This document shows positions 54,979 to 61,705 of a stretch of DNA of 64,000 nt, in pieces. Under the pieces are notes generated by a model. It was given only the letters and a program-made list of their open reading frames with translations, made no database searches and was not told where the DNA came from. Numbering within the stretch: position 1 is the first letter of the stretch; each line of letters begins with the position of its first letter. Source of the stretch: Scenedesmus sp. PABB004. Taxonomy: Eukaryota. The stretch is taken from assembly GCA_014905635.1 (NCBI GenBank), contig JABVCE010000022.1:1-64000 (forward strand). The letters run 5' to 3'. The position numbers and the translations under genes were made by a program.

Positions 54979-56682
54979 ATGCAGCTCGCTCCACGAAGCG
55001 CCTGCGTGGGCCGGCCGGCCGGCAGCAGGTCGGCGCCGTGGCCACGCAGCCAACGCGCCGCTGCAGCGGGCGCCGCGGGCTCCCCGCGGCCGGCGCCGGG
55101 CGCCGCCGCCGCTGCCGCGCCCGGGGCCACAGCAGTCGAGACGCCCACGCCGTGGCCCGGCGTCGTTGAAGGGTGAGTCCGGCGTGAGCCATCGACGACG
55201 TCGCGCCCGGCAGCGGCGCGGGGCGCTGCCGGCGACGGGGGCGCTGCCTGGCCGCCCTGGCGCCAGGCGTCCCACGTGCCGCCGTCGCCGCCGCCGCCGC
55301 CGCTGCCGCCACAGCTACTGGACGTGGCGCGGGCACCGCATCCGATACCAGCGCTGCGGCGACGCCGGCGAGCCGGTGCTGCTGGTCCATGGCTTTGGTG
55401 GCAACGCGGACCACTGGCGCAAGAACACGCCGGTGCTGGGCAAGCAGTTCAGGCGCGCCGGGGCGCGGCGGGCGGACACGCTCGCGCGAGCTGGGCGCGC
55501 GCGAGCTAGCCGGCCAGCCCGCCGCCACCGTGCGCGCGCTGCAGGGCGTACGCCATCGACCTGCTGGGCTACGGCTTCAGCGATAAGCCCGACCCCCGCG
55601 CCGCGCCGCGCAACTCGCTGTACAACTTTGACACCTGGGGCGACCAGCTCACTGACTTTACGGAGCAGGTCATCGGCGGCCCCGCCTGGCTCAGCTGCAA
55701 CTCGGTCGGCGGCCTGGCGGGCCTGACCGCGGGCATCCGGCGGCCCGACCTCGTGCGCGGCGTGCAGCTGCTCAACATCAGCCTGCGCGGGCTGCACGTG
55801 GAGCGCCAGGCGCCGTGGCAGCGGCCGCTCGTGGCCGCGTTCCAGCGCTTGCTGCAGTGAGCGCGACGGCGGCCGGGCCGGGCCGCGCCGGCGGCGCGGG
55901 CGCGCCTGCCAGCCAGCCGCCCAACGCCCGCCGCCTCGCCCGCGCTCGCGCCCGCAGGGAGACGCCGCTGGGCGCGGCGTTCTTCGGCAGCGTCGCCACG
56001 CCCGCGACCGTGCGCAGCATCCTGCGCCAGGCCTACGCCGACGGCGCCGCGGTGACCGACGAGCTCGTCGACGTCATCCTCCGCCCCGGGCTCACCGTGC
56101 GCGCCGCGCCGCGCCGCGGCCAGCGCCGGCGCCAGCCCGCCGCGCGCCGGGCGCCGCGACAGGGGCGCCGCGCCGCGCGCGTGAGCGCTGGGCGCCCGCC
56201 GCCGCGCGAGCGCCTCTGCCGCCGCCGCCGCTGCCCCGCCGCGGCGCAGCCGGGCGCGGTGGCCGTCTTCCTTGACTTCATTGGCTTCAGCGGCGGCCCC
56301 CTGCCGGAGCAGCTCCTCGCGGCGACGCCGGCGGGCGTGCCGGTCAGCATCCTCTGGGGCGCGGCCGACCCGTGGGAGGACATGGCCGAGGGGCGGCGCC
56401 TCTTCGCGTCGCAGCCGTGCGTGACGGAGTTTGTCGAGCTGCCGGGCGTCGGCCACTGGTGCGGCGCGCGGGCGGGGCGGGGCGGGGCGGGGGCGGCCCC
56501 GCCGGCGTCGTGCGCCCTGCGCCCTGCGCGCGGCGCCCCGACGGCTGCGTGCCGCCGCCGCCGCGCGCAGCCCTATGGACGAGGCGCCCGACTTGGTGAA
56601 CCCCCTGATTGCGGCCTTCATTGCAAACACCAGCCCCGCCAGCAGCGGCGACGGCGGCGGCGGTGCGGCGCGGCTGAGCTGA
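54979..56682 (+). CDS. Alpha/beta hydrolase (pheophytinase-like clade), probably plastid-targeted
   Basis: WTWRGHRIRYQ, LVHGFGGNADHWRKN, AIDLLGYGFSDKP, nucleophile CNSVGG, LWGAADPWE, GVGH.P.DEAP. Confidence 0.9.
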
Positions 56683-57173
56683 GCGCGGGGTGTAACGCAT
56701 GACCGTCGCTTTACCGCCGCGCGGGAAACAGGCGCCGCCGCTCGCTCGAGCCTTGCCGCAAAGCCAGGACGCCCCCGAGCAGGTTATTCACAGCAGGTTA
56801 TTCACAGCAGCACGCGCGAGACCCCACGTCAGGAAAAAGGAGAAAGGAAAAGGCCCAACCATGCGGGGGCGCTCCTGACATCTCAAGTGCGACTGTGCGC
56901 CAGACTGCGCCACGTGGCGGAGCCGAGCACAGCCGTTGTGCACGACCCTCAAAAGCTCACAGTGCGACGCTGACCCCCGCGTGCTGACCCTCAGCAGCCG
57001 GGACTGCGCAGACCCCGCAGTGCTGACCAGCCAGCCGCCGCCAGTGCCGCCGCCAATACACGATGACACAAGCTACACACACAAGCGGCAGCAGCGAGGT
57101 ACAGCGAGGTACCCAGTGGATGCAGTGCGCGACAGAGATGCGGCTCACCCGCCCGTTCCCGACTGGGCGTAGC

Positions 57174-58301
57174 TCAGCGCCGCCGGGCGCCGCCGTCGCT
57201 CGCGCCCATCTCGCCCTTGAAGTCGGTCACGGCGGCCTTCACGCTGGAGAGGTCGGCATCAGTGGCGTCGCCGTTGGCGACGGCGTCCGACACGTCCGAC
57301 GCAGCAGCGCCCAGCAGCGCGCGCCGCCGCCGGGCGCCGCCGTCGCTCGCGCCCATCTCGCCCTTGAAGTCGGTCACGGCGCTCTGCACGCTGGAGAGGT
57401 CGGCGTCGGTGGCGTCGCCGTTGGCGACGGCGTCCGACACGTCCGACGCAGCAGCGCCCAGCAGCGCGCGCCGCCGCCGGGCGCCGCCGTCGCTCGCGCC
57501 CATCTCGCCCTTGAAGTCGGTCACGGCGCTCTGCACGCTGGAGAGGTCGGCGTCGGTGGCGTCGCCGTTGGCGACGGCGTCCGACACGTCCGACGCAGCA
57601 GCGCCCAGGAGCCGACGGCGGTTGCTGTTGGCCATGGAGGCCTTGGCCGCGGCGATCTCGGCCTTCAGCCCAGCCACCGACGGCGCGTTGTCCTCGTCGT
57701 CGGCGCCAGCGTCGGCGGCCAGCAGGCGGCGGTTGCTGTTGGCCATGGAGGCCTTGGCCGCGGCGATCTCGGCCTTCAGCCCAGCCACCGACGGCGCGTT
57801 GTCCTCGTCGTCGGCGCCAGCGTCGGCGGCCAGCAGGCGGCGGTTGCTGTTGGCCATGGAGGCCTTGGCCGCAGCGATCTCGGCCTTCAGCCCAGCCACC
57901 GACGGCGCGTTGTCGTCGTCGTCGGCGCCAGCGTCGGCGGCCAGCAGGCGGCGGTTGCTGTTGGCCATGGAGGCCTTGGCCGCAGCGATCTCGGCCTTCA
58001 GCCCAGCCACCGACGGCGCGTTGTCGTCGGCGGCGGCGCCCGCGTCGGCGGCGCGCAGCGCGCGGCCTGCGCGCAGGAGAGCGAGCGCGCGGCAGCAGCG
58101 GCGGCGGCGGCGAGTGAGTGAGGGTGCCTGGGCGAGATCCATCCGCGCTCAGGGGCCGAGCGCCGCCGGCTGCTGGCCGCAGGCCGCCGCGCTGACCGCC
58201 AGCCTGGCTGCCAGCCGCGCACCTTGCGCGCTGCCGCAAGCGGCCAGGAGGAGCAGCAGGCTCATCGCCAGGGCGGTGGGGGCCTTGCGGAGGGGAGCCA
58301 T
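57174..58301 (-). CDS. Secreted tandem-repeat polyprotein (signal peptide + 4 A cassettes + 3 B cassettes separated by RxLL sites); 2 exons (58301-58223, 58066-57174), about 323 aa
   Basis: MAPLRKAPTALAMSLLLLLAACGSAQG then repeats; GT-AG intron with a ctcac branch point keeps the frame. Confidence 0.85.
57177..58052 (-). repeat. Coding tandem repeats: 4 x 111 bp (58052-57606) and about 3 x 147 bp (57605-57177)
   Basis: Near-identical units read directly. Confidence 0.95.
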
Positions 58302-58791
58302 GGTCGCTGGCGGCGGGTAGGTCGACGACTCCGGCTTGGGGGCTCGAGCTCGCTCGGCGGTGTGTGGCCGGGGAGCGCGCCGGCCGCGTTTATCAGGCGC
58401 TGGCGGTGGAGTGAGGTTGGAGAGTTAGCAGAGGCTTTGAGAGGCGCGGGCGTGTGAGACCGTCGCCGAGCACTTGCTCCACTCTTCCTGCCCCGCGCCG
58501 CCCGCCGCCGACGCGGCGACCGCCCAGCCTGATCGGAAGCGGCGCGTCGGCGGCCGGTGAGCGGGCGGCTGGGGCGAGCGATGTCACCGGCCGCCGCGCT
58601 GCTGTGATGGGTGAGGGGGCGAGCCGCCGCCGCCATCATCAAAGGCCGTGCTAAGCGCCAACGACGTTACACGGGACGTCCCCGCAGCAAACCAACAGCA
58701 ACTCTGCCTGACTCACCCGCGCGCGGCGCGCGGTCGCTGCTGCACGCAAACCACGCACGCCGCGCGCGCAGCTGCCCCGCGCACGCGCAGC

Positions 58792-61220
58792 TCACAGCTC
58801 CATGGCGGCGGCGGCGTCGCCGCCCCCGCCGCCCTCGGCCGCCGCCGCGGCAGCGGCCGGCGCCGCGGGCGCCGCGGGCGCCGCGTCGGCGTCGACGGGC
58901 ATGGGCGCCTCGCCGCCGCCGCTGGGCGGCACGCCCGGCGCCGCGGGCTCCGCCTGCGAGCCGCCGGCCGCCGCGGCCGCCGCGGACGACGACGGCCCCG
59001 CCGCCGCGGCCGCGGCCGCCGCCGTGGCCGCGGCCGCCGCGGCCGCCTGGCCCGCCGCGGCCGCGGCCGCGGCCGCCGCCGCGCGCGCGGGCGCGGGCGG
59101 CCCCGCGCGGGGGCTGCAGTTGAAGAGCAGCGCCTTGATGACCTGCCAGCCGCGGCGGCGGCGGCGGTGGCGGCGAGTGAGGCAGGGCGGGTGCCCGAGG
59201 GCCGACGGCCGCGGGAACCGCGCCCGCTGGCTGGCGGCGCGGGCGGCTCGGCGGCGGCGCGCCGCCGGCGCGGCCGCCCGGCAGCTGGCTGGCCCAGCCA
59301 GCGCGTCGTCACCTGGCTGCTGAGGCCCTTGATCTGCTCCGCCGACAGCTTGGTCGTGTCGCGGCAGATCTTGAGCAGCGGCCCCTCCTCACCCTTCTTG
59401 CGCTCGCCGCCAAAGCGCCCGAGCCGCGCGCCCTGCGCGAGCTGGCCGTCGGCCTGCGCACGCGGCCGCGCGGCGCCCACCCGTCAGCGCCGCGCCCCTC
59501 CGCCGCGTCCCCGCACGCGCCCGCCGCCCTCGCCCGAGCGCCCACCCGTCCCAGCCCCGCCCCGCCCCGCTCCCCGGCGCACGCCGCCGACCTGCTCCAG
59601 CTTCTCCGCGATGTCGACGATCTGCCCCGCCGCAAACTCGCGGTTTGCGAGCAGCGGGCTCGCGGAGAGCGTGTTGACCCAGTACTTGTTCCACAGCAGG
59701 TCCAGCAGGTGGCCGTCCAGGCCCGACTTGAAGAACGACACGTCCAGGCTGTAGTACTGTGGGCGCGTGTGCGTGTGTGTGTGGGTGTGGGTGTGAGTGT
59801 GTGTGGGACGAGGGGAGCGGGCGGGCTGGTGCGGGTGGGCGGTGGTGGCGTTTGGGGGGGTCGCCGCGCCGTGCCTCCTCCCCGCCGCCTCCGCGCCGCC
59901 GCCTCCGCGCCGCCGCCTCCCCGCGCCGCCGCCCGCTCGCGCCTGCTTGGCGTGGACGCCAAAGTCCTCGATCTTGGACAGCGGGATGGTCTGGTACTCG
60001 CTCGGGCCCTCGTCGGGCGGCTTGTAGCCCTCCGGGTAGGTCCGGAACGCGCCGACCTCGACCTTGCCGCTCGCCATCGTGCGCACCGGGTCGACGACGA
60101 CCGCGAGGAACGGCTCCTGCGCGCGGGGCGGGGGGTGCGAGTGCGCGTGAGCGCGAGCGGGCGCGCGTGAGTGCGCGGGCAGGCGTGGCGAGGAGGGCCG
60201 GCGGCGGCGGGGGCGGCGGGGGCGGCGACGCGCCTGGTACTGCTGGTTGAGCATCTGCGTGGAGCAGTCGATGCCCGAGAGCCAGCAGCCGTACCCGGGG
60301 TGGCTGTGGTACCAGCCGACGATGTTCTCAAGCCGCCCCACGTCCTGCGGAGCGCCGCCGCGCAGGACGGCGGCGCGGCGCGCGCTCCCTCGGGCGCGCC
60401 GCGCGCGCCGCGCCGCGCCGCGCGCCGGCGGCCGCCGCGCTCCCTCGGGCGCGCCGCGCGCCGGCTGCCGCGCCGCGCTCCCTCGGGCGCGCGCACGCAG
60501 GCGCGCGCGCGCAGCGCCACGCGCGCGCGCGCGCGTTCCCACCTTTGTGGTGCCCTGGAAGTCAACCATGTACTCGTAGGCCTCCGCCTGCGCGTTGACG
60601 CGCGTCTCGGTCCCCTCCACCGGCAGCGCGAAGCTGTCGATCACGATGAACGTCCCGCCCTGCACCTTGCCCTGCAGCAGGCCCATCACCTGGCGCGCGC
60701 GGCGCGCGGCGGGCGCGCGGTGGGCGCAGCGCGGTGGGCGCGGTGGGCGCGGCGGGCGCGTGCGGCGGCGGCGGGCCGGCGGCAGCAGCAGCGGCCGCTG
60801 CAGACGCGGCGGGGCGGCGTGGCGCGGCGGGGACGGGGCGGGGACGGGGGTGGCGATGGGGGCGGGGCGACGGGCGCGCCGCGCCGCGCACCTCCAGGTT
60901 GCCGCCGCTGCGCGCGTGCATCGCGATCTTGAGCAGCGCGAGCGCCGACATGCGCACGCTGCGGCGGCCGCAGCGGCGGCGGCGGCGGGGCGGCGGCGGG
61001 GTGGGCCGCGCGCTGCGAGGGGGCGGCGGCGTGCGGCGGCGGAGCGCGGCGGCGGCGCGCACTGCTTGAAGTAGTGCGGGTCCTTGGTCCACGGCTTCTG
61101 CGCCTGGATGGCCTTCTGCTCGGCGTCGTCATACTTGTACAGCGCGTCCGTGGGGGCGTTTTGCACGCCGTTCTCCAGCTCCCAGCGCAGCCGCGCGGTG
61201 GCCGTGTCGGGCGCCGCCAT
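58792..61220 (-). CDS. CSN5: COP9 signalosome subunit 5 (JAMM deneddylase)
   Basis: [77 protein letters not shown]. Confidence 0.97.
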
Positions 61221-61705
61221 CTCGCAGCGCTGCTGCGGCGCGCGCGGCGCGCAGCCGCGACGGCGCTGCGGGCGCGGCGCGCGGGGCCGCTAGCGGGCGG
61301 TGCCGGGAGAGGCCTGACGCTGCGGACGCGGCCGTCCAGGCGGCGAGGAGGCGGTTGCGGCCGGTGGCGCGCGCTGCTGCTGCTGCTCCCGAGGGGCGCG
61401 CGCGTGGGCTGCCTGAACCGGGCGTCGAGGACGGCGCGCAGTCGCACTGCGTGCGGCAGGGACTTCGCTGTCGGCAAAGGGGCGCGCCAGGCGGAGCTGG
61501 TTTTGGCACTTACGGCAGCTTGCACAGCGCGCGGGCGGCGACGCCCGGCCGCAGAGCGGTCACTAGACGCGATCTGAGCCGATCCAGAACGCCGCACGCC
61601 CACCACGCCAGAGCCGCACAGAGCAGCAGCAGCAGCAGCAGCAGCGGCGAAGCAGCGGCGCAGCGTGTGCCCCGCGCACTCACAGCAGCAGCCGGCACGC
61701 TCGCC

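Follow-up and report, generated by a model that had tools for sequence, protein, structure and literature searches.

What does a gene encode whose product consists of two short peptide units, repeated four and three times, with all arginines of the repeat region gathered at the unit boundaries? The question is posed by a locus at 57174..58301 on the minus strand of the first 64,000 nucleotides of contig JABVCE010000022.1 from Scenedesmus sp. PABB004 (GenBank assembly GCA_014905635.1); this whole 64-kb stretch is referred to below as the window. An earlier interpretation made from the letters of the DNA, which we call the sequence-only reading, took the product for a secreted polyprotein that would be processed into seven peptides of two related types. 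The reading that we favor, with a probability of about 0.4, is that of a lineage-restricted, secreted pre-pro-protein cut at its Arg-cluster boundaries by subtilases resembling site-1 protease (S1P), kexin, or both. What is established is how the sequence is laid out, which frame is coding and that related organisms have the locus; splicing, secretion, each of the cleavage steps and any activity of the protein are predictions.

The repeat gene is modelled with two exons, the first of which appears to encode a signal-peptide-like N-terminus and the second the remainder of the protein (Table 1). Exon 2 opens with G-RALR, followed by four A units of 33 amino acids (aa) and three B units of 42 aa. 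The linker after the A units is RRLL in three cases and RRRLL in one; two of the B units are followed by RRRRALL, and directly after the last unit the open reading frame (ORF) ends in RRR. Translation and Tandem Repeats Finder returned exactly the arrangement that had been described in the sequence-only reading, that is, signal peptide, RALR, four A units, three B units, linkers and terminal RRR. The A array (57616-58052) comprises 3.9 copies of 111 bp with 98% matches and the B array (57178-57612) 3.0 copies of 147 bp with 97% matches, both with 0 indels; these are the only two arrays that score above 200 in the window, in which 12 rows reach a score of at least 150.

Table 1. Features of the repeat locus and of the adjacent genes (coordinates in the window; LLR, codon log-odds; UTR, untranslated region)
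Feature	Coordinates	Strand	Remarks
Start codon ATG	58301-58299	-	ACCATGG context
Exon 1	58223..58301	-	79 nt, 26 codons plus 1 base; encodes MAPLRKAPTALAMSLLLLLAACGSAQ
Predicted intron	58067..58222	-	156 nt, GT-AG; AAG/GTGCGC ... TCCTGCGCGCAG/G; ending in GCGCAG/G
Exon 2	57174..58066	-	pro-piece and repeats; stop TGA at 57176-57174
RALR, first basic boundary	58053..58064	-	abuts A unit 1; residues 28-31 of the spliced product
A unit 1	57942..58052	-	33 aa + RRLL; unit residues 7-8 are AA instead of DD
A unit 2	57831..57941	-	33 aa + RRLL; LLR +21.8 bits, sole positive frame
A unit 3	57720..57830	-	33 aa + RRLL
A unit 4	57606..57719	-	33 aa + RRRLL; one additional Arg codon at the A/B junction
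B unit 1	57459..57605	-	42 aa + RRRRALL; LLR +28.3 bits, sole positive frame
B unit 2	57312..57458	-	42 aa + RRRRALL; DNA identical to B unit 1
B unit 3	57177..57311	-	42 aa, KA for QS, + RRR, then stop
Probable 3' UTR of the repeat gene	56800..57173	-	lower GC, 0.54-0.76 in 50-nt windows; position inferred
Upstream neighbour, CSN5 (COP9 signalosome subunit 5) gene	58792-61289	-	JAB domain, E 7e-23, and CSN5_C
Convergent downstream neighbour	55656-56702	+	ends near 56680; TGTAA at 56691, ~10 nt past the stop

The distribution of basic residues is the most conspicuous property of the protein. All 22 Arg residues of the 296-aa exon 2 product are located in RALR or in the linkers, in line with the earlier statement that almost every Arg lies in these linkers. 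There are seven Arg runs (RR three times, RRR and RRRR twice each), one closing each unit; the 12 Lys residues are all single, and no Lys/Arg dibasic pair occurs within the bodies of the seven units. Given that Arg makes up 9.1% of the 891 residues encoded by conserved exons of the window, the chance of zero Arg in the 33 + 42 unit-body residues is ~8e-4, and the chance that the four Arg of the 49-aa B unit are contiguous is, by our own arithmetic, ~2e-4. The residue that precedes the Arg runs is Asn in the A units and Ala in the B units. Because the units are near-identical recent copies, the number of independent boundary contexts is about four rather than seven (G-RALR/AADAG, N-RRLL/AADAG, N-RRRLL/GAAAS and the B/B junction), in addition to the terminal RRR. 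A BLASTP comparison of one A unit with one B unit produced no alignment at E<=100, so the description of the two as related types finds no support; the A and B bodies are alike in closing with an Arg run that is followed by (A)LL. That one style of boundary recurs on two apparently unrelated bodies is, among the arguments from within the protein, the strongest for a role of the boundary as such.

Whether the locus is a gene at all has to be asked with particular care in DNA of this composition. The GC content is between 0.74 and 0.84 in all 2-kb windows of the 64-kb stretch, which contains 276 stop-free ORFs of at least 150 aa in length, and for this reason ORF length is worthless as evidence for a gene here. 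These long ORFs, found in every frame, fit the view that the locus is non-functional, namely, a GC-rich minisatellite in which the ORF, the ATG and the GT-AG boundaries are accidental, or else a young, unexpressed or decaying ORF. The same view can draw on the lack of a homologue or Pfam family, on the lack of TGTAA past the stop codon, and on the antisense frame at 57067-58320 (+), which is also open, for 417 aa, with a GC content at third codon positions (GC3) of 0.89, and reads as a Ser/Pro/Ala-rich repeat protein.

Because at 79% GC every frame at the locus is open, coding was tested by four routes. The GC content of the three codon positions is 0.74/0.58/0.94 in the proposed frame vs 0.70/0.52/0.95 in the 891 codons of conserved exons, whose third positions are thus ~95% GC. 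Codon log-odds, trained on these 891 codons from the Pfam-supported exon pieces of the window against their five off-frames, are positive only in the proposed frame, for the A unit, the B unit (Table 1) and exon 1 (+6.6 bits); the proposed intron scores below zero in all six frames, and the scores of the antisense frames range from -0.6 to -16.1. Each of the three periods (111, 114 and 147) is divisible by 3, and the A/B junction is the A/A junction plus exactly one Arg codon. The 417-aa antisense ORF, which could be picked up by a gene caller, lacks an ATG before the repeats and has negative codon log-odds, and was rejected as a mirror artefact.

Whether related organisms have the locus was assessed over 57942-58500, a segment that includes one A unit, the intron, the first exon and the 5' flank, in four metagenome runs (X1-X4). 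A look-up of sequencing runs that share words with the sequence listed four DNA runs, with small shares, and no RNA run. Real contigs of the locus are found in X2, X3 and X4, three freshwater-metagenome runs from two studies. The closest of these, record 15 of X2, spans 58131-58500 and differs by 17 substitutions and 9 gap letters; both substitutions listed for exon 1 are synonymous (58257, Leu; 58281, Ala), and a single in-frame 3-nt deletion falls within the poly-Leu run of this exon. In the intron and the 5' flank, the relatives show indels of +3 (an insertion at 58172-58173), -2 and +1. Records 13 and 28 contain five 1-nt gaps at 58088-58105, with a net loss of 5 nt that is harmless inside the 156-nt intron, and both span RALR, where no change is listed. 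In the more distant X3 contigs, the changes in exon 1 are mostly replacements of one hydrophobic residue by another (A to V, L to V, T to V, A to L), and for the start ATG no change is listed in the relatives. One X3 contig links 58052 back to 57942, and therefore this relative also has tandem A units. The run X1, designated 'fungus metagenome', was rejected as a holder of the locus because its matches are confined to GC-rich low-complexity stretches at 58018-58131; these stretches draw deep unrelated contig matches, up to a summed word depth of ~2600 in X1, and render the X1 word share of 0.12 misleading.

An accidental ORF in a minisatellite is hard to reconcile with codon usage that is positive in one of six frames for both repeat types and exon 1 and in none of the six for the intron, where it is negative throughout, with repeat periods, a one-codon insertion at the A/B junction and a 3-nt deletion in a relative that are all in frame, with an antisense ORF that scores negative and has no ATG before the repeats, or with a closest relative in which the listed substitutions in exon 1 are synonymous and the non-coding flanks carry frame-breaking indels. 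On this evidence, we regard a non-functional locus as improbable and consider that the repeat locus very probably is a real gene.

The N-terminus of the product rests on the predicted intron, one of three frame-preserving GT-AG models at this locus. The two other models were rejected for their negative codon log-odds, and the net 5-nt gap of the relatives at 58088-58105 would break models that read through this segment; an unspliced start at ATG 58142 was rejected as well, with codon log-odds of -12.9 bits. The strand, frame, intron and signal-peptide-like first exon of the sequence-only reading are all favored by the codon log-odds and the related contigs. The exon 1 product consists of an n-region with R5 and K6, a 12-residue hydrophobic core (A10-A21) and a c-region, CGSAQ; its hydropathy in 9-residue windows is 2.6-2.9 over residues 10-15, with a peak of 2.86. 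Inspection and hydropathy, the two means by which the signal peptide was assigned, revealed no second hydrophobic segment in the 296-aa remainder. Exon 1 is thus predicted to encode a signal peptide, and the product is probably secreted. The LAAC sequence at the end of the hydrophobic core (58236-58247, minus strand) invites a bacterial lipobox reading, which was rejected given that the organism is a eukaryote and that X3 and X4 include related contigs with Ser in place of this Cys, so that the feature is not conserved.

The position of RALR, four residues past the predicted end of the signal peptide and ahead of a D/E-rich segment, is also reminiscent of translocated effectors, the RxLR-dEER proteins of oomycetes as this class is usually defined. 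Motifs of the same kind recur at every unit boundary of the repeat protein, unlike in the effectors, and the window shows no sign of an oomycete or a pathogen: its gene content is that of housekeeping functions, and the relatives come from freshwater metagenomes. We consider an effector of this type extremely unlikely.

The layout of the protein has counterparts among several groups of known precursors. The fungal KEX2-processed repeat proteins (KEPs) have been mined using three features, namely, a signal peptide, internal repeats and KR, RR or KK between the repeats such that at least four fragments result (PMC6339444). All three are found in the repeat protein: a signal peptide without a membrane anchor (by inspection), near-identical repeats, and basic sites between them, with more than four fragments upon in-silico cutting at RR, which bears out the earlier comparison with KEX2-processed proteins. 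The likeness to KEPs and to the yeast alpha-factor precursor comprises the signal peptide, the short pro-piece, near-identical tandem units, RR to RRRR at every boundary and the lack of a recognised domain (PMC6339444, PMC7329392, PMC9769878). Unlike KEPs, the repeat protein has no sequence relation to this group, its host is not a fungus, and its cleavage is predicted; at 33 and 42 aa, its units are long, whereas fungal cores are mostly short, one precursor combines two unit types that are unrelated, and the Arg runs are followed by (A)LL, giving R-x-L-L, whereas fungal KR is followed by EA/DA spacers.

It is this (A)LL that points to S1P, known in plants as SBT6.1. RRLL is the autoprocessing site C of S1P and the cleavage site of Lassa GPC (PMC3497046), and the Arabidopsis SBT6.1 cleaves the GLV1 propeptide after RRLR and RRRAL, the canonical motifs being RXXL and RXLX (PMC4983112). 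The proposal that RxLL/RxLx is an S1P/SBT6.1 motif therefore agrees with published sites. R-x-x-L or R-x-L-x occurs at the boundaries RALR, RRLL, RRRLL and RRRRALL of the repeat protein, and RRLL, as well as RRRAL inside RRRRALL, is identical or nearly identical to sites that have been cut experimentally in the S1P/SBT6.1 substrates (S1P site C, Lassa GPC, GLV1 and RALF23; PMC3497046, PMC4983112). Unlike the repeat protein, these substrates have one or two sites, the cleavage of which frees a single domain or peptide. S1P-type sites are not known to serve as a repeated spacer in multi-copy precursors, and our searches of the open-access literature found no such case. What is unusual about the protein is that all its boundaries are of the R-x-L-L style, that two unit types without relation are combined in a single precursor, and that it occurs in this host.

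As for the enzymes, subtilases resembling S1P (SBT7) reportedly occur across Archaeplastida (PMC6713707), and Chlamydomonas has prohormone-convertase-like and carboxypeptidase-B-like enzymes along with predicted multi-copy peptide precursors (PMC6313938). The repeat protein resembles the precursors of neuropeptide-like and amidated chemotactic peptides of Chlamydomonas in the presence of a signal peptide and paired-basic or furin-like sites, the lack of recognised domains and, for some of them, the multi-copy arrangement (PMC6313938, PMC6919629, PMC9351486). Unlike the Chlamydomonas candidates, which were chosen for Gly-(K/R)(K/R) amidation sites (PMC6313938), the repeat protein has no Gly before the basic runs, and there is no sequence relation. 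Our search of the open-access literature turned up no relevant report of KEP-like precursors, or of polyprotein precursors of peptides, in algae. As a sequence, the repeat protein is an orphan; as a kind, it is within the known class of secreted proteins that resemble multi-copy peptide precursors.

Under the favored reading, the product would enter the secretory pathway via its cleavable N-terminal signal peptide, the removal of which would leave a Cys-free, acidic (-12), Ala-rich pro-protein. Subtilisin-like convertases of the Golgi or a post-Golgi compartment would then cut every Arg-cluster boundary, with S1P/SBT6.1-type cleavage after R-x-L-L/R (RALR, RRLL, RRRLL and RALL), kexin/furin-type cleavage after the runs of RR to RRRR, or both. 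Cleavage of the S1P type would give one N-terminus to all four A peptides and one to all three B peptides; after kexin-type cleavage, a carboxypeptidase would trim the remaining basic residues, and the terminal RRR is compatible with basic tails that get trimmed. This would yield a 33-aa peptide four times and an unrelated 42-aa peptide three times, each of them anionic and prone to form helices; such peptides might act as signals, in defence or in the matrix. For cleavage at the linkers as such, we put the odds a little short of even.

The composition of the predicted mature protein (28% Ala, 12.5% Asp, 10% Ser, 9% Gly; net charge of -12; no Cys, Trp, Tyr or His) bears on two further assignments. 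Pherophorin/GP-type wall glycoproteins of algae are defined by Pro/Hyp-rich (Ser-Pro)n modules. The repeat protein, unlike such hydroxyproline-rich proteins, contains only 4 Pro among its 296 residues (each A unit has one) and no (Ser-Pro)n, and no N-x-S/T sequon was seen on reading the sequence of the exon 2 product. The other assignment is that of a precursor of peptides that are made on the ribosome and modified after translation (RiPPs), in which dedicated enzymes cyclise the repeated cores, or modify them in another way, once these have been freed at basic sites, as in the ustiloxin-type KEPs of fungi. The residues that are commonly cross-linked in ustiloxin-type RiPPs are Cys, Tyr and Trp, all of which are missing in the cores of the repeat protein, and these cores are long (33 and 42 aa). 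Furthermore, no gene for an oxidase, a methyltransferase, or a DUF3328-type or BURP-type protein was detected among the 28 scanned ORFs of the window, and the neighbours are the CSN5/JAB gene and an ORF without a Pfam family. Thus, although the combination of signal peptide, repeated core and basic site is shared with fungal RiPP precursors (PMC6339444, PMC7329392), this option of the sequence-only reading finds no modifying enzyme beside the gene, and we rate it as very unlikely.

Several results weigh against processing into peptides, beginning with the predicted fold. In the AlphaFold2 model, computed from the single sequence (mean pLDDT, the per-residue confidence, of 67; pTM, the predicted TM-score, of 0.26), there are ten helices, which cross the RRLL and RRRRALL linkers (e.g., 19-45, 56-83, 93-119, 130-165 and 192-214) and break at acidic or Gly-rich segments, not at the linkers. 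A heptad-like seam that includes linker Leu can be traced by eye (V19-L22-I26-A29-M33-S36-L40-A43). For the processed-peptide interpretation of the sequence-only reading, this means that the layout, the frame and the motif fit it, and that the model, which embeds the linkers in helices instead of exposing them as loops, speaks against it.

Other adverse points concern conservation. In their DNA, the units agree at 97-98%, so that the conservation of linkers among the copies is mostly shared ancestry, and the differences among the copies (4 synonymous vs 5 residue-changing codons) are too few to show selection. Among 8000 scored candidates from an index of 5.8 billion proteins, of near and shorter lengths, there were no homologues at E<=0.01, and no homologue long enough for a comparison of the linkers was recovered. 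In X2 and X4, likeness drops below 80% directly after RALR, with a loose end at 58052; hand translation of this 30-letter end gives DSSDAGAGTN vs AADAGAAADDN in the window, and therefore the unit bodies appear to evolve fast. Finally, no canonical TGTAA was found 3' of the stop codon of the repeat gene, although both neighbouring genes have one, and none of the basic runs is preceded by an amide-donor Gly, so that the amidation route of Chlamydomonas is not predicted.

The observations on the fold are those expected of a protein that is secreted and stays intact, as a chain of about ten amphipathic helices with acidic or Gly-rich turns, a helical repeat or partly disordered acidic protein, soluble or associated with the surface, that might function as a matrix, cation-binding or surface-coating protein, with the Arg clusters and LL in a structural role. 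The predicted helices span the linkers at a pLDDT of ~70-80 and break at GADDEDNAP, NGDAT and GASDGG, the heptad-like hydrophobic seam runs through RRLL, and the acidic, low-complexity composition would suit such a protein; an intact helical repeat protein is thus compatible with the modelled helices and seam. Ala-rich sequences are called helical by default, and with this helix bias and a pTM of 0.26 the model provides no confident tertiary packing. Nor would a structural role need 22 of 22 Arg at boundaries, units free of dibasic pairs, a leading RALR or a terminal RRR.

The core of the B unit further hints at a motif for folding, as opposed to a free peptide: its central nine residues, NG-(T/D)-ATD-(A/S)-DL, resemble a helix-turn-helix and, together with the ensuing helix, recur in two bacterial-looking proteins, P0003 and P0009. 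These consist of ~50-aa repeats with the motif F-(L/M)-D-K-(L/V)-x-N/S-G-T-A-T-(D/E)-(A/S)-D-(L/M) and exceed the cut-off of the Pfam family EAD10 (39-45 bits vs 24.1); unlike the repeat protein, they have no Arg-cluster boundaries, and the match score between them and the repeat protein is inflated by repeat-on-repeat matching. P0003 is the top phmmer match of the whole repeat protein (E 2.2e-08; P0009 is similar), one of 7 matches at E<=1e-3, none of which reaches 1e-10, among 1.84 billion representatives; none of the 7, each a repeat or low-complexity protein, was accepted as a homologue. One B unit on its own matches P0003 at only 22 bits, which is not significant across 1.84 billion proteins, and EAD10 (PF19954) is not among the 6 Pfam families that the 296-aa product matches at E<=10, the best of which reaches 18.1 bits vs a cut-off of 27, with none above its cut-off. 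We therefore treat the likeness of the B unit to P0003 as a short common helix-capping motif, not as homology. An intact helical chain is the main rival of the favored reading, and we consider it possible but rather unlikely. Searches elsewhere were likewise negative: the ESM Atlas contained no usable match to the repeat protein, tblastn for a paralogue in the window found only the gene itself (550 bits; all other matches at or below 41 bits, i.e. GC-rich noise), and of 596 pattern matches in metagenome contigs of the Joint Genome Institute, 0 were confirmed as relatives.

The genomic setting of the locus is that of eukaryotic nuclear DNA, as judged from its gene content. The Pfam scan of the neighbourhood covered 28 long ORFs, hand-picked out of the 276, and 13 of these contain fragments of eukaryotic families, split as exons would be, including EMP70, Orai-1, Cornichon, eIF-2B, CSN5/JAB, class-I aminoacyl-tRNA synthetase, ribosomal S14 and bZIP. 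The pentanucleotide TGTAA is found 12 times in the window vs ~6 expected, both strands together; one copy lies at 58671 (minus strand), ~120 nt past the apparent stop of the upstream CSN5 gene, and between this site and the ATG of the repeat gene only ~370 nt are left for a promoter and a 5' UTR. For the convergent downstream neighbour on the plus strand, Pfam gave no match at 1e-4; its C-terminal part looks like an alpha/beta-hydrolase. An AT-richer stretch common to the two convergent 3' ends contains a perfect 14-bp tandem repeat, AGCAGGTTATTCAC x 2.4, at 56778-56810.

What the protein would mean depends on whether the predicted cuts are real. The signalling peptides of green algae are known from very few cases, the best studied of which is one amidated chemotactic peptide of Chlamydomonas (PMC9351486), and a precursor that is short, lacks domains and has seven products whose exact termini are predicted lends itself readily to testing. 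A more specific scenario, which we put forward as doubtful, is that S1P-type R-x-L-L sites and multibasic runs serve as the repeated spacer in a freshwater green microalga, yielding two unrelated anionic helical peptides at a fixed ratio of 4:3 from one transcript, for signalling between cells or for defence/allelopathy, and that such a precursor evolves fast by unit duplication with the boundaries kept. If this S1P-spacer reading is true, the protein would be the first multi-copy peptide precursor delimited by S1P sites and a KEP-like system outside fungi and animals; if it stays intact, it is just an orphan acidic repeat protein of modest interest. Should the cuts prove real, the logic of signal peptide, repeats and basic sites that underlies fungal KEPs and animal neuropeptides would reach a green alga, the locus would show whether S1P-type sites can serve as serial spacers, and it would become a template for mining further algal genomes.

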